DNA of 30,110 nt from an uncultured Eubacteriales bacterium (lineage in GTDB: Bacteria; Bacillota; Clostridia; Christensenellales; DTU072), in contig CACXDF010000220.1 of assembly GCA_902766325.1 (NCBI GenBank), positions 1-30,110 of the forward strand, given 5' to 3'. Below, one piece after another: positions 3,543 to 30,110 of the stretch. The first letter of the stretch is position 1. Each line of letters starts with the position of its first letter. The notes beneath the pieces are model-generated. The model ran no database searches. It had not been told where the DNA came from and saw nothing but the letters and a program-made list of their open reading frames with translations. Both the position numbers and the translations under genes were made by a program.

Positions 3543-3573
3543 TTTTTGCACGTTTTTAAATATAAGTGCTTTC

Positions 3574-3602
3574 AAAAAACGCTCTTTTCGAGCGTTTTTT
3601 TT
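3574..3602 (+). terminator. Intrinsic (probably bidirectional) terminator
   Basis: AAAAAACGCTC (3574-3584) - TTTTC loop - GAGCGTTTTTT (3590-3600): perfect 11-bp inverted repeat running into T8, 31 nt after the stop at 3542. Confidence 0.85.
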
Positions 3603-3643
3603 ATCATATGCCTTTCTTAAGGCTTAAAATCCGAGATTGCTCA

Positions 3644-3672
3644 TTGACAAGCATATGCTTTACATTTATAAT
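3644..3672 (+). promoter_or_regulatory. Perfect-consensus sigma70/sigma-A promoter for gene A (and B)
   Basis: TTGACA (3644-3649) - 17 nt - TATAAT (3667-3672), 50 nt upstream of ATG 3723; GGAGG RBS at 3714-3718. Confidence 0.85.
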
Positions 3673-3681
3673 ATAAATGTA
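3649..3681. promoter_or_regulatory. Two abutting dyad elements overlapping the promoter (candidate operators)
   Basis: AAGCATATGCTT (3649-3660) is a perfect 12-bp palindrome in the spacer. TACATTTATA-A-TATAAATGTA (3661-3681) is a perfect 10-bp inverted repeat centred on the -10 box. Confidence 0.55.
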
Positions 3682-3722
3682 TAGGTAGGCTCAAAGTTAT
3701 TTTCTCGCATCTTGGAGGGTAT

Positions 3723-9700: not shown

Positions 9701-12700
9701 GATCGAGATATACGGGGCTTATAAGCAGAATTATGAGTTCTATTTCCCCGGACAGGGCGAAACTTCGTCATATTTGTACGTTTGGCCGCAAATATTGTCG
9801 CTGGAAGTCGATTATCATCAGCAAATCGGCTATTCGGGCGACGCGATGATCCCCGATTACAACGTTTATAACGAAGATCACGACGAAATGACGGGAGCGA
9901 CTATGGGCTTGTATATCGCAGGTTACTATTATGCGGACGCCGCCGGCAAGATCCACGTTTTCGTAAACGAATTCACGCAAGACGGTTCTGCGATCGCTTC
10001 TACCAGACCCGCCGTCTTTGCGACCGCCGCCGGAGAGGAAGAAACTGCGGACGCGTATTACTACTTTTTGCAAGGCGACGAAAGAATATATGTTTACTGC
10101 GAAGGAACGTCCTGTTTCTATTACGCCGATAATAACTCCGCCGGATCGAAAGTGTATCTGAGCGATCCTGTTACGATTGACGACACTTATCAAGCGACTT
10201 GTCTAAACGTGATAGACGGAAAAGAGATCTATATATGGATCAACGAGGATTCCGCCGCGGCAGGCTGTTCGGAAGTAAACAGCGTTATCGACGTTTATAT
10301 GGCGGATATGACGAAAGGCGGTTATATCCTTAAAGTTTCGGCAAAGCCGGATAACGCTCAAGGATGTAGCGAAACGAACTACAGAGAGAGTCAAAAAGCG
10401 ATCATTCTTTTTGATATTCTCAGTACTATCGTTAAATTGGACGATGAAAAAATATATATCGAAAAGAAATTCGACGGTTCCGTTTATGGATCGAGAAACG
10501 ACGATAGTTTGTATTTTAACAGTTTCTTTATTAACGAAAACGCCGGCGCGCACGTCGAAACGAAGATGGGTTGGGGTTGGGTCAGTATAGAAAAGTATTA
10601 TTACAACCCCCGCACTTCCGCCGCTACGATAGCCGGCATGAACGGTATTACGTACGAAAGCGCTTTTTCCGCGGCGGACAGGACCGACTGGGGACGTCTT
10701 ATCGACTATGAGGATGGCGATCTCGTATCTGCCGGATGGTATATTCTTTTGATGAAAGCGTCTATCAGCGACGGTACCTCTACGGACGGTCGTTTTGACA
10801 GAAACATGATCGGAAATATCGGTTTCAAAGCGGTGCCCGCGTTTACTTTCGGAGAGACGGAATACGCGAGCGACGATACTACCATTTACTTTATCGTGTA
10901 CCTGGCGCGTTCCCGCGCGGACGACTACCAGTTCGATTTGACTGTAGAAGGTTTACGGGAGGAAAACGATATAAATATCTCCGGTATCGATAAAGTCTAT
11001 TCCAAGTCGTACGATAAAACTCAAAACGATTATGATTTTATTTTGAGAGTTACGAACAGAGATTCGTCGAAAGGTCAGATCGTCAGCGTGACCGCGTCCG
11101 TATCCCGTTATGCGGATATGACCGCCGCAGAAGACTTTTTTACCACGAGAAGAAACGTTAAGAACGCGCCGTACGTCTTCGGAGAAGAAAACGGTTACGC
11201 TATCGGCGACAGCACGTCCGGAAGCGACGGAACGGCTTATTTCTATAATAAAATAAGCGGTTCTTTGTACAATTTGACTTCCGATATCGACTTTAAGATC
11301 GGGAAGACGTATTACGAATTGAACAGTGCGTTTATCGAATATTTGAATCTTTCTTCCGAAATGCAGTCGTATATGCTGAATTCGTATGAAGATCCTAACG
11401 GCGCATCGTTCTATCTTCGCTTTAAGGTCAACGATCGAAATTCCGGTTATTACGATAATAACTATGCCGAAAAGACGTTTGTTTTCGCTGTTTGTATCAG
11501 AAAAGCCGAGCTTCAGGTTCGTATAATAACGAAAGAGATCCCGCCGGAAGAAAACAACGGTATTTCGGGCGAACGTTACGAATCCAGCAAATATTACGGC
11601 GAGGCTCCGCAATCCGTTGAATATAAATTCGGTTTTGAGTTTATCGGTTGGAACGCCGGCGATGAAAACCTTATGTCTTTCTATAGCGAAGATATGTACC
11701 CCGTCATCAACTGGAACGGCATTACGGCAAGCAGCCCGGCAGGTAGCGATTATCACATATACGCCGCGAGCGGGCCCAATACCGTAGAACTCGATAACTA
11801 CGTTATGGTGTACGAGCAGGCGACTCAATTCGTTATTTTACGTCGAGCGCCGACCGTTTCTTTCGAGGCGACGCAGGTCTATCAAGGCAAGGCGCTTACG
11901 CCGACGGTTATTCGTGTGGGTATTGACGGACAGAATCTCGACGATTCTTCTTCGGGCAATCCGGATATACTCGACGCTAACGATATAACGATCAGACGTA
12001 AAGGTATGTATAACGCCGGAAGAGGCCGGTTCTGGTATACGACGGTCAACGATCCGTTAACGAAAATTTACGATACGATCCCTGCCGGAGGACTGCCTAT
12101 CTCCGCGATTTATTCTTCGAATTTCGACGATGCGTTCGTCAGCGTAGGCAGCACTTATGACGTCGGATTGTATTTATATGAAGTTTCGTTCGGCAGAAGT
12201 TCGAACTATCTTGCCATAGAGCCGACTTATTATTTATTCGAGGTCACAAAAGCTCCTTTGACGCTCAAATTCTGGGATATCAACTCGAATAACGCTTTTC
12301 GTGGCTATGCCGAAAAGATATACGATAAGAGCACGACGAATTATCCTCTTTTCGTCGTAGCGTACGAGGGATTCGTCGGAGGGGACGATTCCGCCGCCAA
12401 TAAAGCACCGCAGACGATCATGTATTATCGTACGTCAAACGGAGAGACGACGGGGATAAGAAGTATCGGACTCATCAATCCTTATTACGTCTTTGTCGAC
12501 GGAGAAACCGGTAAAGAATCGGTCGGGAATTATGCGGACGACTATATTTATCCTATCGACATTATTAAGGATTCGGGCGGTAACGTCATACCGTACTATG
12601 TAAAACTGATCCTGTCGGATACCTATGGTATAGCGGATAACTATTATATTTCGGTAGATTATTTCAAAAACGATGCGAACAAGGTTTTGTATCCGGAAAT

Positions 12701-14893: not shown

Positions 14894-16114
14894 ATGAATA
14901 AAAAGGTCGTTTTTAAATATAAATTTGTTGTTTTTATCGTGTTATTTATTGCGTTGGCGGCGTCGTTTTTATTCGGCGTCGCGCCGCGGGAAAACGCGTA
15001 CGCCGCGCGTCAAAAAGTAATGACCGCGGAACAGTCCGAGGACGTGGTATATTGCGGAAAAAACTTCATCGACGCATCAGGCAAACTATGCGATACGGAC
15101 GTGGACGCGCCCGGTTTTAATAACGATCTTTTTGACTCTTTCGTATTTAAATTGGACGGACAGGAGATCGACGTCTCCGTCGAAGACGTTTTGTTCGAGA
15201 CGATCTCTTCCGTTCAAAATCCCGGTCAATACGCGCTCCCCGTTACCGTTTTTTACGATAACGTCTATTATCGCGTTTCTTCCGTGAATTTTGCTATCAA
15301 AAAGAGAACCGTCACGGTGTTGACGCTTCTGAACGGAAAAACGGATCTGACCGTAAACGAGGGAGATGATATTTCGATCTCGTACGACTATCAGAACGCC
15401 GTTCCGGCGCATACGATGCAAGTATCGCATAACGGGGTATCCGTAACGGAAATCAGATCGGAGTACATTACGATACCGGCATGGACGGACGTCGATATAA
15501 CGAGACCTATCGAAAACTGTCACGTGGTTGCGGCGCATGCGGAAAGCGATTATTACGATTTCGTTTATACGGGCGCTATCCTTACGATCCTGCCCGCCAC
15601 GGTAAAAACGCTTAGTTTTTCGGATGAAAAATCGACGCGTCTCGTACTTGTCGGGGATTTCAGCGTACTTCATTCCATGCGGTATACCGATATCGGGATC
15701 GATCCTTCCGGAGAGGATTTTTCCGTTATCAGCGCCAATGCTGACGTCATCTATAAAGACACCGGATTTTTCGATAAATATGAAAAAAAGGGCTGTTTTT
15801 CAGTCGAAATGTTTTATAATAACAACGTCGTAACGGAAAGCGTACCGGCCGAAGTCGCCATCCTCGCGTCTTCTTTGGATACGTCGAAAAAATACAAGGT
15901 CGTAGCCCTGTATAACAACGGCCGGAGCGAAGTTCTCGACGCAAAATTAAACGACGGATTCTTGCGTTTTAACGCTTCCGATATGGGCGATTTTATTATC
16001 GTTTCCGAGATACAGGGCTTAAGTATAACTTATTACGTTCTTGTGATCGTCGGCGCCGTCGCGCTTATCGTTATCATCATCTTGCTTATTTCTGTTTTTC
16101 GTAGAAAATATTAA
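14894..16114 (+). CDS. Gene B: 406-aa surface protein (signal peptide, 1-2 MBG-like domains, juxtamembrane beta-domain, C-terminal TM)
   Basis: Start overlaps A's tandem stops (TAATAATG, 14889-14896). Signal peptide ends in ENAYA-A. MBG-like QNPGQYALPVTV...AIKKRTVTV and DYYDFVYTGAILTI. TM YYVLVIVGAVALIVIIILLISVF + RRKY. Confidence 0.8.
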   Translation: MNKKVVFKYKFVVFIVLFIALAASFLFGVAPRENAYAARQKVMTAEQSEDVVYCGKNFIDASGKLCDTDVDAPGFNNDLFDSFVFKLDGQEIDVSVEDVLFETISSVQNPGQYALPVTVFYDNVYYRVSSVNFAIKKRTVTVLTLLNGKTDLTVNEGDDISISYDYQNAVPAHTMQVSHNGVSVTEIRSEYITIPAWTDVDITRPIENCHVVAAHAESDYYDFVYTGAILTILPATVKTLSFSDEKSTRLVLVGDFSVLHSMRYTDIGIDPSGEDFSVISANADVIYKDTGFFDKYEKKGCFSVEMFYNNNVVTESVPAEVAILASSLDTSKKYKVVALYNNGRSEVLDAKLNDGFLRFNASDMGDFIIVSEIQGLSITYYVLVIVGAVALIVIIILLISVFRRKY

Positions 16115-16190: not shown

Positions 16191-16224
16191 ATAAGCTATA
16201 GGTATGCCCTTTTTCGGAGGATAT

Positions 16225-19200
16225 ATGATGAGAAAGAAATCCGCTTCGGCACTTTTGATTTTACTGTTGGTTTGCTTCCTTTTGCTGACCTTATTTGCCT
16301 GTAACGACAGGAACGGTATTTCCCAAGAGTCGCCGATACAAAAGATCATCATTACCACTATGCCGAAAACGAATTATTACGTCGGAGATAAGTTCTCCGT
16401 CGGGAATGCCGATATCACCGTTTATTACGAAAACGGAAAGAGCGAACACGTTCCGCTTACGCTCAACATGATCTCCGGTTTCGACTCTAACGTCGTCGGC
16501 GATCAGATCCTTACCGTTTTTTACAAGAACCAGACGGCTTATCTCACCGTTAAAGTCTCCGTTGCTCCCGTTTATTCCGTTCAACTCGTTAATATGCCCG
16601 ATAAAACGAATTACGTTATCGGAGAATCTTTGGACGTCTCCGGGATGAAGATCCTCGTCACGTACAGTAATAACTACACCGAGATCATCGACGTCACCGA
16701 GGATATGATCTCGCTTTTCTCGACTGAAAGAGAAGGCGAGACGGAAATGACGGTATCTTACGGCGGAAAGTCCTGTATGGCTGCTTATTCGGTCGCGACA
16801 AAGACGGCGGACCATATCGAGATCAGTCTCGGCGATTCTTTCCGTATCGCTTACGTCGTCGGCGACGCTTTCGAACTTACCGGCGGCAGCTTTTTTGTCC
16901 ATTACAACGACAACACGTCGGAGTTCCTTGATTGGGACGCTCTTTACGAGCAGGGCGCGCTCACGTACGTTATCGAGAAAGAGACCAACAACGTCTTTAC
17001 TACGTCCGCATTGGAAAGAAACGTGTTTTTATACTACAAGGGAGAAAAATATCAAACGGCCGTTACGGTCGCGGCAAAGCGTCCGCAAGGCATTTCCGTC
17101 ATGTCGGATGCGCCCGATCAAATTTTGAAGGGCCATATCGATCTGACCGGGGGGCAACTCTACGTCGTTTATAACTCGAAACAAACCGGTTACGTCGCCC
17201 GCGTTAAGGACTCTACCGCCGAAGCGCGCCGCGCATACGCAAGCGGCGTCTGGAATACCGCTCGTTCCGCCTATTTCACGCTTAAAAACGGCGAATACGT
17301 CGGCGCCGCGAGCGACTTTGACAATAACGCCGTTTATTATACTTCTTCGGAAACCGCTTTTGCCGATCGCTATCAAACGCGTAAAGAATTTTTGTACGTA
17401 AAAAAGAATTCGACTTTTGAAAAAGCGCCCGAAGAATACGACGCCTCCGTCGTTTATTACATTCCTTCCAACGCTCGTCTTTTCGATTTCGACGATCAGA
17501 TCAACGTCGACGTGGTCTGGAACGATTTTGACATCAACGTCGTCGGAGAGTATTCTATTCGCTTGACCGTAGACGGAGCTTCGCTTGACTATCGCATTAA
17601 GGTTATAGCGCCTTCGCCGATCGCGTTGGAAGTCTATCCGACGGAAGGCGACGTGAACGTGGACGCCGTCACCGGCGCGTATTACGTCTATCAGGACGAG
17701 ACTATCCACGTCACCGACTGGGAATATAAGATCAAACAGAATAACGACACTTATTCCATTATTTCTTCCACAGGCGCTTATTCCGCAAACGTCACTTCGG
17801 AAATGTACGTCGGCAGTACTTTTATGACGAACCACGCCGTAGGAACGTACGACTATGATTTTTCTTTTACGACGGTGACCGGTATCACGCTTCGTTGTTC
17901 CGTGCCCGTGGAAGTTCGTCAAAGAGTTATCGTTTCCGCTACCGTAGTCAATCCGACCAGAGTCGTGTACAGCGTGGGCGACGAGGTCTCTTTGGCGGGC
18001 GGGTCCTTGCGCGTGCGCTATATTAACGGCGTCGAAGGTCAAACGATGTCTTTTACCGCCGATATGCTTTATGCCGAAGATCCTACCGGTAATTCGCCTG
18101 TTCGTTACGTCGCGCAGGACGGTTCCGTCGTTCCTCTCGTAAAAAGCGGCACGGACGCTTTTACCGCGAGCGTGGGAACGAGCAAACTCTATATCTACTA
18201 CGAGGACGCTTATTATAACACCTCTTATGCGACGGAATTCGATATCACCGTTATCGTCAAGGCGATCGCTATCGCTTTGAACGAAGATAAAGAAACCAAA
18301 AACGACTATATCCTCGGAGAAGACTTTTCGATGGCCAATTGGGAAGTCGTCATAACGTACGCCGACCAAAGTTACGCCACGGAAAACGATTTTTCCGACA
18401 GTCGGTGGACGATAGAAGGAAACGATCTCTCTACCGTCGGTACGCACACGATCACCCTTTATTACGGGGATAAGTCCGATAACGTGGCGTTGACGTACGT
18501 CTGTACCGTGCATAACGACATTGTTTCCGTTCGTCCGAACGTCGATTTTATCGGGTGCACGACGGAAGGAAAGGGTTTTGATTTCGAAGGATTGAACTTT
18601 GTGGCCGTCCGTGAAAACGGCGATGAAGAAAACGTTCCTATGGCGGCGATGACGATCTCGAAAACCAAAGCCGGAGCCTATGTTTCCGTTCCGACCGAAT
18701 ACGCGCCCGCTACATTCGTAAACGAAGAAAATTGGTCCGTTTACGGTCTGTCTCTATACGAAAAATCGGGAGGAAGTTACGTTTTTGCGACGGCTTTCGA
18801 CATTTCGAAAGAGTACTACTACGCCGTCGACAATATGACGAATATTTCTTTTACGTACAGCGGAAAAGAAGCGATCGTATCCTCTCTCGTCGTCAGCAGA
18901 CGAGTCGAAAGCGTGTTCGTCGCGGCGTACCCGGAAACGGAATACGTTCTTGCCTCCGCCGGAGAATGGGATCTGAGCGATCTTGTTTTGCAAATAGCTT
19001 TTGATAACGGCACGACGGCCGTCGTTAAGCACGCCGATACCGGCTCGACCGTTACTTTCTCTCAAAGCGGCGACAGGTACGTATTTACGCTCAACAATAT
19101 GACTTATTATTTTGAAGTTAAGACGGAAAGCGGCGTCAATTATTCTTTATCGGACATCAAAAACGACCTGCAATCGCAATCTGCGGAAGAATTTATCGAA

Positions 19201-22200
19201 AAGGATCTTGTATTTTCCGTCGAGGATGTCGCTTATCGCGCTCCCGTTTTTTCCGCTTCCGTTCCGTTCTATTGCTTTAATCAAAAAGTTGTGTCTATCC
19301 ATGCGGAGATCGGCGTACCGGTTGTGAGCGGTTCGGAAGTGATCCGCGTTAACGAATTTACCGATACCACCGTTTATTTGAACGAAGGCCTTGCTCTTTA
19401 TACCGTTTCTTCCAACGGAGAGTATTCTTTCGTGGATGATAACGGTACGAAGAGATTCGTCTATAACGATTCCGTCGTAAAAACCGATTATCTCGATTGC
19501 ATTTATCTTGTCGTCGAGTATGATACGACCACCGTCTACAAAAAACTTGCGGACGTCGCGTCTTCTTCCGGTTTTTCCGTCTCCGGCTACAAAGAGAACA
19601 AAACCGGCGCGCAAACGATCCGTCTTACTTATCTTTTAAAAGATTGCTCTTTTATGGCGTACGTTCGTCCCGACGTTCCGTACGCGATTTCTTTTGTCGA
19701 TGAAAACGGACAAAACGTAACCGAGGCCACCGTGATCGAGAATATGGACATCGATCCTAATAAGATATCCGTATCCGTTGAACTGAGAGACGCCGACGGC
19801 GACGCCGTGGCAACGAGAAGAAAAGTCGATTTTTCCGACGCCGCTTGTACGTATGACAAAACGGAAGCGATCGTCTTTACCGAGAAAAACACCGACGATA
19901 TATTCTACACGCAAAAAACGGTGACGGTCACGTACGAAGGCTGCAGCAAAGATCTTACGCTTACCATTTTAAAGAAATCCGTTTCCGAGATCGTCATTCA
20001 AAACATGCCGAGACAGGTTTATGCGGAATTGCCCGAATTCGCAAGTACGGACGAAAGCGTTCTTTTGTATACCGATTCGAACGGAGAAATAGGCACGATC
20101 CTCGTTCGCTATAATAACGGAACTTCCGAGATCGTCCCGCTCAACGACTCCAGATTGCGCGTCAACGCGGCCCAATTCAATACCAAACTCGTGTTGAATG
20201 ACGGCGCGGAACAATCTCAGATCATTACCATCGGTTTTACCGATGAAAACAACGTTACGAAAGAAACGCATTATAACGTTATCGTACGCGACAGAAAGTA
20301 CCTGACTATCAGTTATGACAGTTCGAATAATCTGTCTTTTGATAACGTCTATTATTGTCAATACGGTACCGGAGCCGACGCAAGACCGAAATTCGACGTA
20401 TATTACTATTCCGACTTTTACATGAACGCGCCCGTCGCGTTTAACGGTTACAGCGTGAAGTACGAGTATCACGACGACGTTTTGGGCGACGTGACTCGTA
20501 CCGTTTGGCCGACAGAAGTAGGGCGTTATACGATGGTCGTTTCTTACGCGGGCGACTATGCCAATAACGCTTTCGAGGATAGATCGGTCACCATCGAGAT
20601 CACCAAAAAGCAGATCGGTATTTCCGTGGAAGATATGAGCCTTACGTTCGGGGATAAGTTTTCCGGGACGGCGACGGACGTCACGTCTTTGCGCGCGCTC
20701 GGTTTTACTTGGAATATGAGCGGCGTAACGGGCGGACGACTGACCGGGGACGCTTTTGTGCTCGGCGACACCCTCGACAACGTCGTATCCGTGTCTTTCG
20801 AGCTGCAAAAGGACGGTCGAAAGGTCGATCCCGCGTTCAGCGGAGATAACTCTTATCTCGTTATGACTCTGAACGTCGGCAGCTACTATATCAAGCCCAT
20901 CATTACGCTGAAAAAGGCGAACTACACCGTCCCCGAAGGGGTAGGCGATCTCGGAGCGACTCTTACCGTCGTGAAAAAAGCCATTAAGATCGTCGCGCTT
21001 GACGAAAAGAAGGTATACGGCGATCGCGATCCCGTTTATCGTTTTGAAATCTACGATGAAACCGATAATCTGCTCGGCGGTAACTATTATCGCGAATTGA
21101 CCGGGTATACCGTCGGCGATCCCGTGGCGGAAAGCGTCTTTATTTGCGATCCCGTTACCGGGATATATTCTCAAGCGGCGGGAACATACGAATCCGGGAA
21201 GACCTATTACGTATTCAAAGCGGAGATCGAAATCGATCCGATCTTCGTCGATACCGCTTCTTCGTCGTACAGATTGGTCCGTTCCGGGACGGATACGGAT
21301 AACGTCAACGACTATCACAGGATCTTTAACGGCGACACGGAAGGAACGCTCGATAACTATTCTTTGATCGATTACAGCTATGCTTCTTTGATCGTTTTGC
21401 CTGCGGAACTTACGTTGACCGCAAGCAGGACGACTCGTCCTTTCGGTACGGCCGATATGTCGATCGATTATATCGCCGCCGCGACTTCTTCGTTCAAATA
21501 CAACGACGATTTTGATTCCGTTTTCGGACCGTATTTTACGCAAAGCGCCGTATTATACTACGATATGACGGGAAAGAGCGTGTACGAGACTTTAACGGAA
21601 GGCCTTTCTTCTTACGACGATTGGGCCGTATTATATCGTAATCTGGAGATTGACGGATTCGAGTCGGTCGTTTATATGGGCGCGACCTATGCGGTCGTGC
21701 CGATCGCTCTTGCCTGCGGGACGTATACGTGTCGTATGAGCGACGTTTATTCGGACGTAGTGAAGAACTATATCGTCACGACGCAACCGTTTGAAATGGA
21801 GATACTTCCTATCGGCGTTCGTCTGAACGTCGGTTCCGTTCTGCTTTACGAAAAATCTTTGATCAAAGACGGCAGAAGAAATGCTTTTATCGACTATTTC
21901 TCTTTCCCGAGAGAAGAGTTTTTGACGGTCAATATTTACGGCGAAACGCTCACTTTCTCCGATTTCGTTTTTTCAGTCGATAATCGTGACGATATCGAAA
22001 ACCTGTATGCGGATTGGATGTCGAAACTGATCGTCGGCGCCGAATACGAGACCGGTACCGGCTCGAAATATTTGCTCAGTTCCGACTTTTTGAGCGGTTT
22101 TACGTTCATAAAAGAACGCGGAACGGACACGGGCGTCTATCGGGTCTCCGTCGGATATAACTATTCCGATAACTTCTCCGATTTCAGCGTTATCAGTCGA

Positions 22201-25200
22201 AACGAAGATAAAAACAAGAATTATTTCTCATTCTACTATGACATTTTCCGCAATCAGTACGCGCAGGTGTCTACCATGCAGGCGACTGCCTACGATACGG
22301 ACGCATACGTGATCGTTTTGCCCGGATTTGCCGATTTGAAGTATTATAAAGTCGACGAAGACGGCAAGAGATATCAAGAAGTCTATAATCTCAATAAGGC
22401 ATCCTCTTGGGGATTGAACGCAGAATACAGCGTCGACCAAGAAAATTATTACGGTATGTCCTCCATCGGAACGGACAGCGTTACTTATTCTATTACGCCG
22501 AAAGCGGGAACGCAATTTATCGTGTATAACCGCGAGAATTGTCTTGCCGCGGGCGACTATACGGGTTCCGTCACGTATTCTTATTTTGCCGACGTGAACA
22601 AATCGTCGAAGTTTTCGACAAACTATATCTATCTCGGTAATATGAGCGTGCTTTTGGATAGCGATATCGCCTCCGTCCTCAATTACGTTTTGTTCGGAAC
22701 GGTGACGGACGGCGCGTTGACGTTCAATAATACTTTTGATTATACCGTTACGCAAAAACCCGTTAGCGTATACATAGAAAACGGCGACGTCCAATATAAT
22801 TTTGCCAATCAAACGCTTATCGCTCGCGTGGACGGAAGTTTGGCCGAAGGCGACAGATTGAACTTTTTATTCGACGTTTCCGTCGTCTATAACAGCAAGA
22901 CGGACGTCGTAAATAAAAACGCGTCCACGATCAGGAGTTTCAAGTATTATTCCGTTGTCCCGGAAGAACTTTTAACGCGCGAGAACCTGCCGACTTATTA
23001 CGAATACGGTTCGAGAGGATTTGTGTTGACGCAAGATACCATCCCCATGAATCGTAAGGCGTACTATCTGCTCACAGAGGCGTCGGATCCGTCGGTCGAG
23101 GCCTACGATATCGCGTATTCCGGCACTTATACGGTCAGATTAAACGATCTTGGGAACGCCAATTATTGCCTCGAAACGGACGAAACGGTTCAAAAGACGT
23201 TTGCCGTCGTGCCGAACGAAATACCGATCCTGTTATATAACAAAGCGGCTATGCCGCAGGTCTCCACGACCGATTTTACTTTTGAAGAGACGTATGCCAA
23301 AAAGGCTTTCTCGCCCATCGATTACAGCTGGACGTCCACGACCTACGCCAACTCCTTGCTGTTCGACAGTATCGATCTTAGCCAGCTTTCTTCCGTTAAT
23401 TCTTCTGCGACGAGGAAGATCGGTACGGCTGCGATCGGCGGCCAAACATACGACGTCAACGTTAAGTTCCGCGGTACGTTCCCGAGCCTGACGGTGACCG
23501 GTCGCACGATCAGTATCTCCGGAAGCAACGGCAGAACGCTCGCGCAGGATACCTATTCGTCCGAGTACGACTATTATTTCTATTTTGTGGACGGCGGAAA
23601 CGAACGCAAGGTCTATTACGACGCCGGAACGGGTTCGTATTATTACAAAGATGCGCCGTATACGACTTTCAAAACGACTACCTGTACGATAACCGACTAT
23701 TACTTCGACGAAAACGGCGTTTTACATCGTCCCCAACCGCTTGTCAATACGCCGAACACGTTGTTTATTTATTCGGAAGACGAGCCCGGCTCCGGCAACA
23801 GACCCGTTTACGTCAAACGCGACCCCGATACGAAGAGGGTGCTCGGTTATGACATCGTATCGAGAGATACTTCCGACTACGTCAACTATACCGTCGTATT
23901 CGTCTATTTGGACAACGGCGTATACAGAGAATGCGACGACGCGCATCTGTTCTCCTTTGTGATCAATCCGGCGGAAGTTTCGCTCTATAATTTCTCGTCC
24001 GCGAATACGAAGGATTACGACGGTATCGACGCCGCTATCGCAAATACCTCGAAATTGACCGTCAACGGCGCTCTGTCCAACGATCCGATCAGCGTGTCGG
24101 ATATCCAATTCGACTTCGAGCGTATCGATGCGGAAGGTTCTACTTATATTACGATCGGCGGAGTCAGATATTATCTCGTGGAAAACGACGATATGAGCAG
24201 CGTCGGCTTGTTTAAAGTGAGAGCGTTTTATTCCGATAACTACGAGATCGTCTTTAAAGGAAACGGCGCTTATAACGGCTCTCCGTCTCCGTACGGCTTA
24301 TATACCATCAAGAGAGTCAAAGCCACATTTGAATTTAATAACGAGATCGCGGCTTATCTCTCCAAGGACTACGACGGATCCGGGCTTACGGACGAGACCT
24401 TGCTTTATTCCGGCGATCTGACCGAATTCGTCGATCGGGGATATAACGTGATCAGTAAACAAAGTAAGACCATCGTCGATAATTTTTCCGATATACGGTA
24501 TCAACTTCAAGTGAAAGGATATGCTTCCGTTTTCGGCGGGACGCCGACCGCTATCGCTCAAAATCAGATCGCCGGTTATAACTATTCCGCCGGAGTTTAT
24601 TGGTTTGACTTCTACGGCGTTTTCGTAGACAAAGACGGTAATTATCGTCGGTACGAGGACAGAAGCAATAAAGAAGAGGGCGAAAACCGGTGGTTGAACT
24701 GGAACTATACCTATATCGTCAACAACAAGAAAGACGTCAATAAGATCGGAGACGTCTATTACGACGGTATTTATCAGATCGATAAGAGAAAAGTATATAT
24801 CGGTATCGACGGACAATTACCCGCGAATGCGACGGATACTTCGTATACCTATACGAAAGAGTACAACGGCACGACGATCACCAGATCGACGATCAATACC
24901 TGGCTCGATAGCGGCGTCGTCACCGTCTATATCTACGATGCGGTCAAAAAGGATTTCGTTCCCGTGAAAGATACCGATTTCGCCGATTCTTTCGTCGGAG
25001 GCAGCGTATCCGTCAGCGGCGGAAGAGAATCGATCACGAATGTGTCGAGTTCCGAATACTTCGAGCTGAGCGCGTCCGATATCGCGACCAACAATACCGA
25101 CTTTATCATCGTCAACTCCGATATCCGCTTTATGTTGAAAGCGATCGAGATCGAGATCATGTTGACTTATACCAATGCGGATAGCGGAAACTCCGCTTCG

Positions 25201-28200
25201 ATCACGTACGGCAAAACGGCCAGAGAAAACGCCGTTAACTTTACGCTCAGTATTTCGGAAGAGGAATTGAAAAAGTTCAACGAAGCCATTCAGGACGGCA
25301 ACACCTATACCGCTACGCAAATACTCGAAAAAGTATGTAATTTCAATAACGCCGAGTTCTATCTTTTCGGTGCCGATAATCCGGCGAACGCCGTGTTCCG
25401 CTTCTCTTTGGAAGGGAAATCGCAGTCGTTCTATCTTTACGATAAAGCGGGCGACTATTATTACGAAGCGGCCGACGGTACGTACCGTGACGATACGACC
25501 TACTACAGCAGATTGCTCGTTCCTGCGGGGACTGCTCTTGATTATACGAAGTACTATGTCTACCACGAATGGTACGAACGCACTTCCGATCCCGTATCCG
25601 TCGCCGGAAAGAAGTATTATTTGATGGAACAAGTCACGGAGAGCGACCCCAATTTCCGCGCGGGAAGCGGCGTGCCGGAAGACAGATACTTTGAACAATT
25701 CTATCACTATACGTTCACGACGGATACCGTCTTCCGTCCCAACGTATCTTATTATAAGCGTAATCCGGGAACGAACGTTTACCGCCTCGTCGATACGTCG
25801 GCTTTGCTCGGTTCTTCCGTTCCGGCGGAGACCTATTATACGCAAAATGGTTATTACGCTTTAACGACGGACCGTATATTCAATTTGCAAAAGAGATATT
25901 ATACTGCGGCGGAATACGTATTCACAGCGCAAAACGCCACGACCACCGCGAATATCTATTACGAAATGAATAAGTATTACGGTGAAAACGAAGACGATTA
26001 CTTTATGTCCGGAAAAGATTATTACGTCTTTACCGTCGTGCCTGCGTCGGGATCCATGGTGGGCGTCAACGTGCAGGCCGAAACCTATTATGAACGGGTC
26101 GGCGATAGATTCGTCCTTACTTCCGATCTTACTTTCGTTCGTTCGAAATTGTATAACGGTCAATACTATACGGTAAGCATTGCCGACGTCATCCGCGGAG
26201 ATAACGCTCATAAAAAGTATTATACGTATTCAAGCGGCAGACATATCAGAGTGCCGGACGGCACCGTACGTCAGGCCGGCGTATCGTATTACGTCTTTAT
26301 TCCCACGGTATACTCGGAAAAAGAGGTCGTTACCGAATACTATTATTACTATTCCGACGGAAAATTCTTTAACGTGTACGATATGCGTCAAGAATTGGAC
26401 GGCGATAAGAACTATTACGTTGGGTACATAGCCGACAAGACGGCAAACGAAAACGTAGCGTACTATACGGAATACGAGGCGATCGTAAAGGCGGAAGGCG
26501 CGCGCGAAAACGGCAGATACTATTATAAAGCCGTCTTAATGGATCCCACCGAAGATACCGATACGTATTATGCGGTCAAAAGATTGCTTCCGGGTAAGGA
26601 TTATGCGTTGAACGGGCTTATTCCGTCCGGCAGCGTGTACGAAAACGTCGACGACAGCGATACCTACTATCTTACGTCCGACACTCGTTATTCCGCAAAC
26701 AAAAACTATTACAGACTGTCCGTTGTGTCCGGAGAACTCGTTGCCGGCGATAAGGTCGGTAGCTATTATATCGTTTCGCAAGGTTATTCTCGCGCGGGAA
26801 GCTCTTTCGAGAACACCGAAAATACTTATTATAAGGTTATCGAGGCTGTAGCCGGCAAGGATTACGCCGTTTCTTCCTTGATCCCCGACTCTACCTATTA
26901 TACGAAAGTAGACGGCGAAGACAGATACGCCTTTGCGCAGTCCCGCATTTTTGCCGCCAACGAGAGATATTATTTGTTCGAAGCGATCCACGGCGTATCA
27001 AGCGTATATTCGATGTCCGCGCTTTTCACTCTCAACGACGGAAGTTATAAAAAGATCGTTGCGCTTACGTCCGGAAAAGAATACGTTAACGGCGCGATGA
27101 TAGGCGCTGACGAAGTATACTACAAAAGCAACGACAGATATGTAAGAGAAACTGCGTTAAAGTACAGAAAAGGCGTAGAATATTATCATTTTGTCACGGC
27201 CGAAGGCTATATCGCCAATTCTGCTTTGAGCGACTATTACGTGGATTCTTCCGCGCGATATACGATCCGTGAGATGACGGCGGGGATTGATTATTCGATA
27301 GGTCAAACCATCGGTGAAAACGTAGTTTCGGCTGATTCTTTCGAGAAGTCGAACGACGTCGAGTATCTTGCCGGGAAGTTGTATTACGGATACGACAACG
27401 ACGGCTATGTTTCCGGCGCGCTGATCGGAACCTATTCCGTGCCGGCGGATGGTTTCTATTCAATAAAAGTCAAAAGCGGATACACGGTCGGGCAGATCGT
27501 TCAACAGGACGTCTTTGTGTTGTCGGGCGATCGCTATAAAAACGTAAGAGGCAGTACCTATCGTTCCGGCGTTACCTATTATGCGTTTACGGAGGCAAGC
27601 GGGTTTATTCCCAAGAGGAATATTGATGATTATTATGTTTCGGGGCGCGGTTATTATTCCGCCGTTTTGATGACGAAAGGCGTTGATTACGTAGTCAATA
27701 CGCCTGTTGCGGAAGGCGTATACAGATTGATCGGCGGCAGGATGATCGCCGTTCCGACTACGGATAACTTTGCCGACGGAATCGTATACTACTTCCTTGA
27801 CGACGCGGGATTTATTCCTTATTCCGACCGCGCAGATTATTATGTGGACGGACGAGGATATTATTCCAAAAAGAGATTATCGCTCGGCGTTGACTATTCC
27901 GTCGGCGACAGTATCGGAAGCGGCGTCTACGTTTATCGTCTCGGCAGATACGTTTTGCCGGAAGAACTGACGTTCCGTTCCGGTTACGATTATTACTTAA
28001 TGGATAACGTGGGTCTTGTTTTAGGCAGCGAGATCGTTTCTTATTGCATTACGGGCGAAAAATACTATTCCTTCACGTTGCAAACGCCGACGGAAGGCGA
28101 TCGTATCGAAGGCGACGTCTTTGAAAAAGAATCCGCGGTATTTATTCCCACTACGGATACGGTGTATCGTAGCGGAAAAGAGTATTATTTACGTTCGAAC

Positions 28201-30110
28201 GCCGGTCTTGTCGATCCGGCCGATTTGTCGTCCTATTACGTCGACGCGACGGGGTGTTATACCTTGGTCGAGCAGGAAGAGGACGTCTCTTATTCCGTAG
28301 GAGATCCCGTTCCGAGCAATATGTATTATGAGATCACGGCGGATGGGATTTGTCGCTATACAAGGGACGAGACCTTTATTTCCGGCAAAAAGTATTACGT
28401 ATTCCGCGCCGATAACACGTATTTGCCGGCAGATGCGGACGTAACGTCTTATTATTTTGAAAACGTTTCCGATTACGGCGTTCGCGCGTTGATCGCAGGT
28501 AAAGATTATACGGTCGGCGACGCTGTGTCCGATAATACGTATACCGTCGACGATAAGTGGTACACCTGTCTTACTTCGGGTGTTTATGAGCAAAACAAGC
28601 GTTACTTTATCTTAGAAGCCGCTTCGGGCTATATCCGTTCGGGCGATCTTCCGACAACGTTCGTCAAGAGCGGAAGCGATCGGTTTATGGCCGTTCTTCT
28701 GAAAAATTATACCATCGGCGCGGCGATCCCGAATAACACGTTCTATACGCTTGCTCCCGACGGAAGATTGATCTACGCAAGCGGAGTATTCGTCGAGGGT
28801 ACGGACTATTACGCCAAATCGACGAACGGTTTTGCGTACGGCGCGAATGAAACCGAGCTGTATATCGTCGACAGCAGATATAACAGCTTTTACGAGAAAG
28901 ACACGACTTCTCTTAACGGAACGTCCGCCGTCGGCAGTTATGTCCGCAAAGAGGACGGCAGAATGGTCGCCGTAACTTCCGGAAACTATACGACCGGCGT
29001 TACTTATTACGAAAGCGTCAATATCGGTCTCGTACAGATCGCGCGGCTCGGCGACTACTACGTATCAGGTTCGGGTCGATATTCCGTAGAAAAAACGGCG
29101 TTTTCTACCGACGCTTACGTTTATTTAAAGAACGGAGAATACGTCAAGACGACGGATGCTACGGCAAAGGACGGTACCTCTTATTATCGCTTCTTTACGG
29201 GCGGATTCGTGCAGAATAAGTATTATTCGCAATACTACGTTCCTACCGAGGTGTTCAGAACGGATAAAGTCATTTACGAACACTATCGATACGGAAACGA
29301 CGTTCCTTATGCGGTAGAGAACGAAACGGACGATTTCTATTCGAAAACGGTACCCGGTCGCGTATATGAAAAAGACGGCGATAAGTACTATACGACTTCC
29401 GACGCTGTATTCGTCGTCGGTAAAGAGTATTATTTGTTCGTTCCCGTGACCGATTTTTCCGACAGAGAAACGACGGACGGCTTATACGTGTTCAGAAAAG
29501 GATACGTCCGCTCTCAACTGTCTTACGCCGCGCTCAGAAAGGCGGTACCGGGCGTTGATTATCAGATCGGTAGGTTCGTTTCGGGCGGGTTCTTTACTTT
29601 GAACGCAAATTCCGTACCGTTCGAAGTGCCCGGCGGCAGTATGTTCTCAGCCGATACCGTTTATTATCGTCTGAACGATTATTACGGCATTACGTCGATC
29701 CCGATCTATTACGAACAGAACGTAGACGGGTCGTATTCGGTCACGACCGACCGTACTTTCAATAACGCGAAGAGCTATTATGCGTTTACCGAAGAATCGG
29801 TCGTAGTCGGCGATATGATCCCGCAAGGTTTCTATTTTGTGAAGAGCGGCACCGACTTTGTCGAAACCACGGAAGAGACCTTCCTGCAAGACGTCGATTA
29901 TTATACCGTAAGAATGGTAAGCGTGACCAACGGCGCTTACGTTGTGAACGGATTGTACGAGAAAGCGGGCGATATCTACGTCGTTACCGGCGATACCGTC
30001 ATGGATGGAAACAAGTCGTATTATCGTTTTGCTAAAGATAACTCGGTAAGCAACTCCGATCCCGTCTTATTGTATGAAAAAGTGGGCGACGAGTACGTTC
30101 TTACGAGCGA
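16225..30110 (+). CDS. Gene C: 3'-truncated giant lipoprotein (>4628 aa): Big_3-like array, MBG/YDG-like domains, Tyr-rich repeat array; absent from the ORF track
   Basis: Frame +1 from ATG 16225 (alternative ATG 16228) read by hand to base 30110 with no stop. MMRKKSASALLILLLVCFLLLTLFA-C26 (Cys codon 16300-16302) is a type II signal with lipobox. Next come Big_3-type units (ITTMPKTNYYVGDKFSVGNADITVYYENGKSEHVPLTLNMISGFDSNVVGDQILTVFY; NMPDKTNYVIGESLDVSGMKILVTYSNN), then MBG (PTEVGRYTMVVSYAGD; KKVYGDRDP) and YDG-like (TKDYDG, SKDYDG, TKEYNG) units. Confidence 0.88.
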   Translation, partial: MMRKKSASALLILLLVCFLLLTLFACNDRNGISQESPIQKIIITTMPKTNYYVGDKFSVGNADITVYYENGKSEHVPLTLNMISGFDSNVVGDQILTVFYKNQTAYLTVKVSVAPVYSVQLVNMPDKTNYVIGESLDVSGMKILVTYSNNYTEIIDVTEDMISLFSTEREGETEMTVSYGGKSCMAAYSVATKTADHIEISLGDSFRIAYVVGDAFELTGGSFFVHYNDNTSEFLDWDALYEQGALTYVIEKETNNVFTTSALERNVFLYYKGEKYQTAVTVAAKRPQGISVMSDAPDQILKGHIDLTGGQLYVVYNSKQTGYVARVKDSTAEARRAYASGVWNTARSAYFTLKNGEYVGAASDFDNNAVYYTSSETAFADRYQTRKEFLYVKKNSTFEKAPEEYDASVVYYIPSNARLFDFDDQINVDVVWNDFDINVVGEYSIRLTVDGASLDYRIKVIAPSPIALEVYPTEGDVNVDAVTGAYYVYQDETIHVTDWEYKIKQNNDTYSIISSTGAYSANVTSEMYVGSTFMTNHAVGTYDYDFSFTTVTGITLRCSVPVEVRQRVIVSATVVNPTRVVYSVGDEVSLAGGSLRVRYINGVEGQTMSFTADMLYAEDPTGNSPVRYVAQDGSVVPLVKSGTDAFTASVGTSKLYIYYEDAYYNTSYATEFDITVIVKAIAIALNEDKETKNDYILGEDFSMANWEVVITYADQSYATENDFSDSRWTIEGNDLSTVGTHTITLYYGDKSDNVALTYVCTVHNDIVSVRPNVDFIGCTTEGKGFDFEGLNFVAVRENGDEENVPMAAMTISKTKAGAYVSVPTEYAPATFVNEENWSVYGLSLYEKSGGSYVFATAFDISKEYYYAVDNMTNISFTYSGKEAIVSSLVVSRRVESVFVAAYPETEYVLASAGEWDLSDLVLQIAFDNGTTAVVKHADTGSTVTFSQSGDRYVFTLNNMTYYFEVKTESGVNYSLSDIKNDLQSQSAEEFIEKDLVFSVEDVAYRAPVFSASVPFYCFNQKVVSIHAEIGVPVVSGSEVIRVNEFTDTTVYLNEGLALYTVSSNGEYSFVDDNGTKRFVYNDSVVKTDYLDCIYLVVEYDTTTVYKKLADVASSSGFSVSGYKENKTGAQTIRLTYLLKDCSFMAYVRPDVPYAISFVDENGQNVTEATVIENMDIDPNKISVSVELRDADGDAVATRRKVDFSDAACTYDKTEAIVFTEKNTDDIFYTQKTVTVTYEGCSKDLTLTILKKSVSEIVIQNMPRQVYAELPEFASTDESVLLYTDSNGEIGTILVRYNNGTSEIVPLNDSRLRVNAAQFNTKLVLNDGAEQSQIITIGFTDENNVTKETHYNVIVRDRKYLTISYDSSNNLSFDNVYYCQYGTGADARPKFDVYYYSDFYMNAPVAFNGYSVKYEYHDDVLGDVTRTVWPTEVGRYTMVVSYAGDYANNAFEDRSVTIEITKKQIGISVEDMSLTFGDKFSGTATDVTSLRALGFTWNMSGVTGGRLTGDAFVLGDTLDNVVSVSFELQKDGRKVDPAFSGDNSYLVMTLNVGSYYIKPIITLKKANYTVPEGVGDLGATLTVVKKAIKIVALDEKKVYGDRDPVYRFEIYDETDNLLGGNYYRELTGYTVGDPVAESVFICDPVTGIYSQAAGTYESGKTYYVFKAEIEIDPIFVDTASSSYRLVRSGTDTDNVNDYHRIFNGDTEGTLDNYSLIDYSYASLIVLPAELTLTASRTTRPFGTADMSIDYIAAATSSFKYNDDFDSVFGPYFTQSAVLYYDMTGKSVYETLTEGLSSYDDWAVLYRNLEIDGFESVVYMGATYAVVPIALACGTYTCRMSDVYSDVVKNYIVTTQPFEMEILPIGVRLNVGSVLLYEKSLIKDGRRNAFIDYFSFPREEFLTVNIYGETLTFSDFVFSVDNRDDIENLYADWMSKLIVGAEYETGTGSKYLLSSDFLSGFTFIKERGTDTGVYRVSVGYNYSDNFSDFSVISRNEDKNKNYFSFYYDIFRNQYAQVSTMQATAYDTDAYVIVLPGFADLKYYKVDEDGKRYQEVYNLNKASSWGLNAEYSVDQENYYGMSSIGTDSVTYSITPKAGTQFIVYNRENCLAAGDYTGSVTYSYFADVNKSSKFSTNYIYLGNMSVLLDSDIASVLNYVLFGTVTDGALTFNNTFDYTVTQKPVSVYIENGDVQYNFANQTLIARVDGSLAEGDRLNFLFDVSVVYNSKTDVVNKNASTIRSFKYYSVVPEELLTRENLPTYYEYGSRGFVLTQDTIPMNRKAYYLLTEASDPSVEAYDIAYSGTYTVRLNDLGNANYCLETDETVQKTFAVVPNEIPILLYNKAAMPQVSTTDFTFEETYAKKAFSPIDYSWTSTTYANSLLFDSIDLSQLSSVNSSATRKIGTAAIGGQTYDVNVKFRGTFPSLTVTGRTISISGSNGRTLAQDTYSSEYDYYFYFVDGGNERKVYYDAGTGSYYYKDAPYTTFKTTTCTITDYYFDENGVLHRPQPLVNTPNTLFIYSEDEPGSGNRPVYVKRDPDTKRVLGYDIVSRDTSDYVNYTVVFVYLDNGVYRECDDAHLFSFVINPAEVSLYNFSSANTKDYDGIDAAIANTSKLTVNGALSNDPISVSDIQFDFERIDAEGSTYITIGGVRYYLVENDDMSSVGLFKVRAFYSDNYEIVFKGNGAYNGSPSPYGLYTIKRVKATFEFNNEIAAYLSKDYDGSGLTDETLLYSGDLTEFVDRGYNVISKQSKTIVDNFSDIRYQLQVKGYASVFGGTPTAIAQNQIAGYNYSAGVYWFDFYGVFVDKDGNYRRYEDRSNKEEGENRWLNWNYTYIVNNKKDVNKIGDVYYDGIYQIDKRKVYIGIDGQLPANATDTSYTYTKEYNGTTITRSTINTWLDSGVVTVYIYDAVKKDFVPVKDTDFADSFVGGSVSVSGGRESITNVSSSEYFELSASDIATNNTDFIIVNSDIRFMLKAIEIEIMLTYTNADSGNSASITYGKTARENAVNFTLSISEEELKKFNEAIQDGNTYTATQILEKVCNFNNAEFYLFGADNPANAVFRFSLEGKSQSFYLYDKAGDYYYEAADGTYRDDTTYYSRLLVPAGTALDYTKYYVYHEWYERTSDPVSVAGKKYYLMEQVTESDPNFRAGSGVPEDRYFEQFYHYTFTTDTVFRPNVSYYKRNPGTNVYRLVDTSALLGSSVPAETYYTQNGYYALTTDRIFNLQKRYYTAAEYVFTAQNATTTANIYYEMNKYYGENEDDYFMSGKDYYVFTVVPASGSMVGVNVQAETYYERVGDRFVLTSDLTFVRSKLYNGQYYTVSIADVIRGDNAHKKYYTYSSGRHIRVPDGTVRQAGVSYYVFIPTVYSEKEVVTEYYYYYSDGKFFNVYDMRQELDGDKNYYVGYIADKTANENVAYYTEYEAIVKAEGARENGRYYYKAVLMDPTEDTDTYYAVKRLLPGKDYALNGLIPSGSVYENVDDSDTYYLTSDTRYSANKNYYRLSVVSGELVAGDKVGSYYIVSQGYSRAGSSFENTENTYYKVIEAVAGKDYAVSSLIPDSTYYTKVDGEDRYAFAQSRIFAANERYYLFEAIHGVSSVYSMSALFTLNDGSYKKIVALTSGKEYVNGAMIGADEVYYKSNDRYVRETALKYRKGVEYYHFVTAEGYIANSALSDYYVDSSARYTIREMTAGIDYSIGQTIGENVVSADSFEKSNDVEYLAGKLYYGYDNDGYVSGALIGTYSVPADGFYSIKVKSGYTVGQIVQQDVFVLSGDRYKNVRGSTYRSGVTYYAFTEASGFIPKRNIDDYYVSGRGYYSAVLMTKGVDYVVNTPVAEGVYRLIGGRMIAVPTTDNFADGIVYYFLDDAGFIPYSDRADYYVDGRGYYSKKRLSLGVDYSVGDSIGSGVYVYRLGRYVLPEELTFRSGYDYYLMDNVGLVLGSEIVSYCITGEKYYSFTLQTPTEGDRIEGDVFEKESAVFIPTTDTVYRSGKEYYLRSNAGLVDPADLSSYYVDATGCYTLVEQEEDVSYSVGDPVPSNMYYEITADGICRYTRDETFISGKKYYVFRADNTYLPADADVTSYYFENVSDYGVRALIAGKDYTVGDAVSDNTYTVDDKWYTCLTSGVYEQNKRYFILEAASGYIRSGDLPTTFVKSGSDRFMAVLLKNYTIGAAIPNNTFYTLAPDGRLIYASGVFVEGTDYYAKSTNGFAYGANETELYIVDSRYNSFYEKDTTSLNGTSAVGSYVRKEDGRMVAVTSGNYTTGVTYYESVNIGLVQIARLGDYYVSGSGRYSVEKTAFSTDAYVYLKNGEYVKTTDATAKDGTSYYRFFTGGFVQNKYYSQYYVPTEVFRTDKVIYEHYRYGNDVPYAVENETDDFYSKTVPGRVYEKDGDKYYTTSDAVFVVGKEYYLFVPVTDFSDRETTDGLYVFRKGYVRSQLSYAALRKAVPGVDYQIGRFVSGGFFTLNANSVPFEVPGGSMFSADTVYYRLNDYYGITSIPIYYEQNVDGSYSVTTDRTFNNAKSYYAFTEESVVVGDMIPQGFYFVKSGTDFVETTEETFLQDVDYYTVRMVSVTNGAYVVNGLYEKAGDIYVVTGDTVMDGNKSYYRFAKDNSVSNSDPVLLYEKVGDEYVLTS
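16333..20290 (+). repeat. Tandem array of about 12 bacterial Ig-like (Big_3-type) domains in gene C
   Basis: Recurrent P-x-K/R-T-x-Y-x-x-G-(D/E)...(V/L)-x-Y-x-(N/D)-G...G-x-(Q/Y/H)-x-(I/L)-T-(V/L)-x-Y pattern. Units 1-2 are canonical; later ones are degenerate and expanded. Count is approximate. Confidence 0.7.
25429..30110 (+). repeat. Degenerate Tyr-rich protein repeat array (about 30 units, continues past the window end)
   Basis: Recurrent G-x-D-Y-x-V-G-x-x-(I/V)...(Y/F)Y...Y-x-x-T-x-D-x-x-F-x-x-G-K-x-Y-Y, e.g. TSDPVSVAGKKYY, TTDRIFNLQKRYY, TTDTVYRSGKEYY, TRDETFISGKKYY, TSDAVFVVGKEYY, TTDRTFNNAKSYY. Repeats are evident in protein, not as identical DNA. Confidence 0.85.

Follow-up and report, generated by a model that had tools for sequence, protein, structure and literature searches.

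A tyrosine-rich tandem repeat in a giant Christensenellales protein is a distinct family with a predicted all-beta fold

To our knowledge, the giant surface proteins of uncultured Christensenellales from gut and rumen are almost entirely unannotated, and the 30,110-nucleotide stretch of DNA analysed here (the window) ends inside a gene that apparently encodes one of them. The last part of this gene specifies a long tyrosine-rich array, raising the question of whether its repeated unit belongs to a known family and what role such an array could have within a giant protein. Two features define the problem:

16204 to 30108, plus strand: 5′ 4,635 codons of a giant lipoprotein gene, from the ORF list and translation; open at the 3′ end, with the frame open to the last base
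25429 to 30108, plus strand: Tyr-rich repeat array, aa 3076–4635, cut by the contig end; from HMM matches, shuffle cross-validation, motif enrichment and composition

The window is an entire contig (C220) of a 1.73 Mb MAG in 313 contigs (G000, 85% complete), and the open reading frame translates to 4,635 aa before it leaves the contig at its 3′ end. The predicted protein begins with a signal peptide ending ...LTLFAC-N, and the same signal peptide with a Cys lipobox F-A-C-[NDQ], read by eye from the sequences, is common to this protein and five of five full-length orthologues, suggesting that the giant protein is displayed on the cell surface. Pfam analysis of the source protein identified three Big_3 Ig-like domains near the N-terminus (E 6.9e-19) and left the other modules without assignment, and an NCBIfam scan of the same protein gave no match.

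To place the array within a complete protein, we compared the source gene with its relatives. A word-indexed search recovered five full-length orthologues, P0002 (6,510 aa), P0003 (6,509 aa) and P0004–P0006 (6,434–7,521 aa), all of which are collinear with the source over 96–100% of the array at an array identity of 77–78% for P0002 and P0003 and 37–38% for P0004–P0006. The missing 3′ part of the source gene lies on a second contig of the same genome (G000:C161:2-5593, 1,864 codons), begins about 20 codons past the last base of the window, and shares 82% identity with P0002 aa 4646–6510. The first 47 residues of this C161 part are the last array unit, and a DNA contig from an independent metagenome run (X2) crosses the window end and extends 1,352 nt beyond it. 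In P0002, repeat units run from aa 3064 to ~4700 of 6,510 and are followed by ~1,800 aa without the repeat. The complete source protein is ~6,520 aa and the array, ~1,640 aa in total, is its central quarter; the earlier note had placed the array distal to the lipid anchor, a position that the ~1,800 non-repeat residues after it contradict. The C161 part carries neither a Pfam domain nor a C-terminal anchor motif. Another contig considered as the missing 3′ end, C73, was rejected as part of a paralogue, the orthologue of a protein named P0009 that is described below, with C161 as the true continuation. The C161 part also has an isolated weak copy of the unit, near its residue 800.

We modelled the repeat with a unit HMM seeded on 16 hand-picked segments and then iterated. 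The unit has a 31-aa core with the consensus xPxGTYYEKxGDxYVLTxDxxFxxGKxYYxF, and the iterated HMM converged on sPaGTYYEKsGDrYVLTTDTTFrsGKsYYLF. This HMM detects 22–26 copies at aa 3077–4635, with several degenerate ones besides; when degenerate copies in the long linkers between cores are included, the total comes near the "about 30" units that the earlier note had given for a ~1,560-aa array. Copies are organized into four blocks that differ in spacing:

25432 to 26298, plus strand: short-period block, aa 3077–3365, seven units with a period of 39–49 aa; from unit coordinates and AF2 model m02e5758d0cb9
26299 to 27105, plus strand: irregular block, aa 3366–3634, three clear core units, degenerate Tyr-rich spacers of 42–107 aa and a YYYYY run; from unit coordinates
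27106 to 29193, plus strand: long-period block, aa 3635–4330, about ten units of ~68 aa; from unit coordinates and AF2 model mbc1fd00f1689
29194 to 30108, plus strand: mixed block with short-period, near-consensus units at its end (aa 4383, 4501, 4539, 4579 and 4622); from the unit profile

Spacers of 10–20 aa produce the 39–49-aa period at aa 3077–3365 and again at aa 4497–4635, spacers of 34–40 aa produce the ~68-aa period at aa 3635–4330, and two irregular stretches of the array carry degenerate copies. In each long unit, the 31-aa core is joined by a spacer that contributes another hairpin (YYVDGxGYYS) and the G-x-DY-x-VG loop, which the earlier note had counted as part of its consensus. 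The segment at 29350–29439 matches the unit profile at E 2.4e-9.

The repeat signal is not an artefact of its own seeding. An HMM built from the units of aa 3076–3800 alone found four units of at least 12 bits in aa 3801–4635, and gave no match in 100 shuffles (maximum 6.8 bits), in aa 1–3000 or in the neighbouring 3,722-aa protein; because a first-half model detects second-half units and none of these controls, the signal is not circular. Regular expressions for parts of the motif were likewise enriched 10- to 100-fold over shuffles, with 6 occurrences of G.DY.[VI][GNS] (0.1 in shuffles), 12 of G[KTV].YY (0.6) and 7 of the T.D..F..GK.YY type (0.0). The array had been described as rich in Tyr, Gly, Thr and Asp and almost free of Trp. 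Tyr makes up 13.5% of the array compared to 8.2% of the rest of the protein (1.64-fold, with the rise beginning at about residue 3076), Gly 8.5% compared to 6.5% (1.3-fold), and the dipeptide YY is found 62 times where 28 are expected. Thr and Asp, although common, are not enriched over the rest of the protein (ratios 0.91 and 0.99), and Trp occurs twice in 1,560 array residues. Isolated weak copies lie in the N-terminal half of the source protein as well, at aa 850–872, 1657–1671 and 2264–2289 (window positions ~18751–18819, ~21172–21216 and ~22993–23070), and appear inserted in larger modules.

Sequence divergence within the array indicates that the expansion is old. Core units share a mean pairwise identity of 26%, and the array DNA contains no long or identical repeats, the longest match being 59 nt at 73% identity; these two observations bear out the earlier inference of an old expansion, and collinearity with orthologues at 37–38% array identity agrees with it. 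Across orthologues, identity is 50% in the N-terminal half, 38% in the array and 37% in the C-terminal part (P0002 alignment, aa 1–3060 versus 3064–6510), with gaps of 2% in the membrane-proximal half and 8% in the array and C-terminal part, and whole-unit insertions and deletions occur at the edges of the array. The array and C-terminal part change faster than the N-terminal half. In aa 3756–4140, 41 residues are invariant among the orthologues, 20 of which are Tyr and many of the others Gly and Asp, a pattern that suggests structural rather than ligand-specific conservation.

Does the unit belong to a family already known? The closest candidates are the choline- and cell-wall-binding repeats (PF01473) of LytA, CbpA, the TcdA/TcdB CROPs and glucansucrase YG repeats, which, like the array, consist of small beta-hairpin units rich in aromatic residues, arranged in long tandem series in Firmicutes surface proteins, and share with it a local G-x-aromatic-Y-Y strand start. 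The two differ in period (41–68 aa in the array compared to ~20 aa), in the residue at the aromatic positions (Tyr where the CW repeats have Trp), and in the CW-repeat pattern G-W...W-Y-Y...G-x-M, which is absent from the array. Choline_bind_1 (PF01473, cut-off 20.5 bits) gave no match at E ≤ 1 in an hmmscan of the whole protein and its orthologues, and a six-frame search of the whole source genome returned no match compared to 109 in a control Clostridia genome (G241). Direct alignment with hhalign of the unit profile to 11 genuine CW repeats from G241 gave a probability of 5.9% over nine columns only, in which GK-x-YY aligns with NG-x-WYY. By these sequence comparisons, the repeat is not a disguised choline- or cell-wall-binding repeat, in keeping with the distinction drawn in the earlier note. 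Rhs/YD repeats (PF05593) offer a second comparison, since these Tyr/Asp/Gly-rich hairpins likewise assemble into beta-sheet structures of very large size within giant proteins of bacteria; the YD consensus and ~20-aa period are absent from the array, and PF05593 gave no match, Big_3 being the sole Pfam family at E ≤ 1.

Broader searches returned the same answer. Pfam, NCBIfam and PHROGs scans of the array, its orthologues and more distant relatives gave no match to the repeat, and PDB sequences, queried with the array as well as a 42-unit profile, yielded nothing but one chance match (E 2.4). We obtained no match in phage genomes by tblastn and therefore see no sign of a phage origin, no usable match in an ESM Atlas feature search, and no description of the Tyr-rich repeat in a literature search. 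The significant match to an existing family that the earlier note had proposed to look for was thus found in none of these collections. At the level of sequence, the repeat is a distinct family without a link to any known repeat family. What the repeat builds is an object of a familiar kind, namely a tandem-repeat segment within a giant surface protein of a bacterium.

We predicted structures of two array segments with AF2, using orthologue alignments of only 8 rows each. The model of aa 3756–4140 (mbc1fd00f1689, window 27469–28623) has a pLDDT of 82.7 and a pTM of 0.63 and shows, in each 68-aa unit, six short strands with a single 6-residue helix, a pattern repeated five times. The model of aa 3076–3370 (m02e5758d0cb9; pLDDT 85.9, pTM 0.71) shows strands of 9–11 residues over the YY...Y part, or a 4+4 hairpin where the GD turn occurs, and these long strands alternate via the T-x-D-x-x-F loop with strands of 4–7 residues at K-x-YY-x-F. 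Both models contain beta strands only, save one short helix per long unit, and ~35% of residues fall in strands of at least 3 residues by a count from the element lists of both. Because pTM reaches 0.63 and 0.71 over 5–7 units, the predicted geometry between units is fixed and the models point to a rigid, rod-like array, not to loose beads.

Structural comparison of one or both models revealed no credible match by Foldseek against the PDB, AFDB clusters and BFVD, in an ESM Atlas shape search, or by VIA-align against 48,161 PDB representatives, where the best Z was 3.7 and the typical best Z at noise level is 7–8. A left-handed beta-hairpin superhelix of the LytA or CROP type was found neither at Z ≥ 2 among those 48,161 representatives nor by Foldseek at E ≤ 1e-3, and solenoids (the form proposed in the earlier note), choline-binding proteins and Rhs/Tc shells were absent among the fold matches, although the lack of a match is no proof that the folds differ. 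Weak VIA-align matches recurred for both models with tandem Tudor, Agenet and SAWADEE domains, including the UHRF1 TTD (6b9m_A) at Z 3.7 (rmsd 4.0, 83 aligned residues) and Z 3.4 (rmsd 3.0, 65 aligned residues), below noise. In these alignments the matched residues come from several units at once, which if anything hints that strands of neighbouring units would lie side by side. The check that the earlier note had asked of AlphaFold and Foldseek, run here on 5–7 units, accordingly yields a consistent, confidently predicted repeating beta fold and no credible fold match, and its proposal of a distinct aromatic-rich beta repeat family is upheld in the databases searched; on the models, the fold is possibly new.

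The Tyr-rich repeat is a recurrent building block of Christensenellales giant proteins, for which a profile and two confident models now exist. An exhaustive phmmer search with aa 3440–4635 against 1.84 billion representatives returned only 7 clusters, which include the orthologues and two shorter proteins, P0009 and P0010 (~2,400 aa, with a C-terminal membrane helix), that carry a very regular 43-aa array of the same Tyr-rich unit. P0009 (2,390 aa, L089:8001-15173) has a C-terminal TM helix and a sub-threshold YDG-domain match, and its locus is syntenic with contigs C116 and C73 of G000, which together hold the G000 orthologue. In the source genome, the unit profile matches at 39 sites spread over at least ten giant ORFs; of three other genomes in the genus, one has seven matching sites. 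Within the order, the profile matches 5 of 201 genomes, the source included, and gives marginal single matches in three other families; among 400 Clostridia genomes 3 match, again counting the source, and the two others are marginal. A smaller genome from another family of the order (G186, 1.1 Mb) encodes a variant, T-T-D-T-x-I-x-W-N-K-T-Y-Y-L (L087 = G186:C3:185823-188903), also written TTDTxI[ND]WNKTYYL and followed by a DIYYNDG hairpin, which occurs once per ~200–300-aa module of a giant protein with 12% Tyr. The variant comes from the same bacterial order as the array unit, lies in a giant protein of the same kind and likewise has a Tyr-rich hairpin motif; it stands singly inside larger modules, whereas the array unit is repeated in tandem without interruption over ~1,640 aa. 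With the variant included, the profile matched only 6 of 201 genomes of the order. On current sequence collections, the best reading is that the repeat is confined to a few Christensenellales-like lineages, and the unit profile is a handle for annotating many of their giant ORFs. The BipA gene in the window likewise assigns the source organism to Christensenellales-like Clostridia. Source DNA occurs in bovine, sheep and goat gut metagenomes from 13 studies, and each of two metatranscriptome libraries contributes a pair of short contigs that match the array at ≥99% identity; these four RNA-library contigs are weak evidence that the array region is expressed.

Together, these data are best explained by a generic, lineage-specific beta unit that multiplied to give a rigid stalk of ~1,640 aa, set between the conserved, membrane-proximal half and the faster-evolving C-terminal region, a reading whose chances we judge to be about even. 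Under this model, each 31-aa core would run from one beta hairpin or long strand (TYYEK-GD-xYVLT) through a T-x-D-x-x-F loop into a third strand (GK-x-YY-x-F), with the invariant Tyr, Gly and Asp residues supplying a small aromatic core and turns. Consecutive units would pack at fixed geometry into a long, stiff, all-beta rod between the lipid-anchored Ig-like/MBG-like N-terminal half and the ~1,800-aa C-terminal region, and a rod so placed would most likely be the stalk or spacer within a giant fibre on the cell surface, holding the C-terminal part tens of nanometres off the membrane. Central position, reuse of the unit in differently anchored giant proteins, the conservation pattern and the confident periodic models all favour a structural role, and reuse in at least ten giant ORFs and in the P0009 family fits a generic building block. 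If a regular all-beta rod is correct, a new repeat fold joins the small set of rigid stalk modules.

The proposed stalk role draws on position and on analogy to fibrillar adhesins, whose stalk repeats include Big_3 and other Ig-like domains, Rib, SHIRT and the G5-E repeats of SasG and Aap. Compared with an Ig-like domain, the array unit is far smaller; it has no sequence relationship to these repeats and matched none of their folds. The resemblance lies in architecture: like the source protein, fibrillar adhesins are membrane- or wall-anchored giants in which a long stretch of tandem repeats separates the anchor from a distal part, and PMC9210967 defines them by a stalk of repeats from which a functional part projects. 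The source protein has an envelope anchor, from the lipobox read by eye, and a repeat stalk made of the three Big_3 domains and the 1,640-aa array; no recognisable distal adhesive domain was found, as Pfam scans of P0002 aa 3000–6510 and P0004 aa 3500–7521 gave no match. With no recognisable adhesive domain in the C-terminal 1,800 aa, the logic of a stalk plus head is incomplete, and array and C-terminal part are so similar in identity (38% and 37%) that conservation does not tell a stalk from a binding module. Exposed Tyr ladders could equally be binding sites.

A multivalent rod that binds carbohydrate or cell-wall polymers, as the earlier note had favoured, is the first alternative, and one that we consider unlikely. 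Periodic exposed Tyr pairs would stack on sugars or bind choline-like groups, in the manner of CW/YG repeats or of the flat aromatic strips on type A cellulose-binding modules, and the array would attach the cell to plant fibre, mucus or the wall of another cell. The very high Tyr content and strong YY excess speak for such a role, as do the short local resemblance between GK-x-YY and the NG-x-WYY of CW repeats, a ruminant-gut habitat where adhesion to plant fibre matters, and the faster evolution of an array that presumably faces outward. Against this, no link of sequence, profile or fold leads to carbohydrate- or wall-binding families, Trp, the usual sugar-stacking residue, is almost absent, the array lies away from the free end of the protein, and its conserved positions resemble turns and a mini-core. 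If polymer binding is correct, it would represent a new adhesion principle in a fibre-degrading ecosystem. A bolder form of this idea, which we regard as improbable, is a new architecture in which a very long continuous Tyr-ladder beta-sheet rod, possibly tens of nanometres in length, binds insoluble rumen plant polysaccharide through the multivalent flat face of its exposed Tyr pairs; nothing comparable would exist in the PDB, among AlphaFold DB clusters or in the ESM Atlas, and the device for adhering to fibre would be unrelated to cellulosomes and known CBMs.

The same flat, Tyr-rich beta surfaces might instead zip together on one cell or between neighbouring cells to form a lattice, a sheath or cell–cell aggregates, by analogy with the rod-like beta repeats of SasG and Aap. 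The unit occurs in many giant envelope proteins of the source genome with opposite anchoring, an N-terminal lipid here and a C-terminal TM helix in P0009, so heterotypic zippers would be allowed. AF2 folds the monomer confidently alone, which argues against this proposal, and we think it distinctly unlikely that self-association is the main role. A string of independent SH3/Tudor-like barrels, one per 68-aa unit and acting as flexible beads that possibly bind peptides or other ligands through aromatic cages, can claim the six strands in ~68 aa of the long unit and the tandem Tudor, Agenet and SAWADEE domains that were the only recurrent weak matches of both models, but is a very doubtful prospect given that Z 3–4 lies under the noise level of the tool, that the aligned residues are scattered across five units and not contained in one, and that the ~42-aa short-period units are too small for a barrel.

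Beyond the stalk model and its alternatives, the surroundings of the array-bearing genes yield minor observations. P0009 lies in L089 just downstream of an ACP/ketosynthase/FabA-like gene cluster. In the window, the two genes upstream of the giant lipoprotein gene, 3723–14891 (3,722 aa) and 14894–16114 (406 aa), have no Pfam match at E ≤ 0.01, and the broadened profile locates one unit copy at 7308–7391 (plus strand, E 1e-4) within the first of them, consistent with a separate note on this stretch that had placed the module in that gene too. The sole annotated neighbour is a BipA/TypA GTPase at 555–2378.
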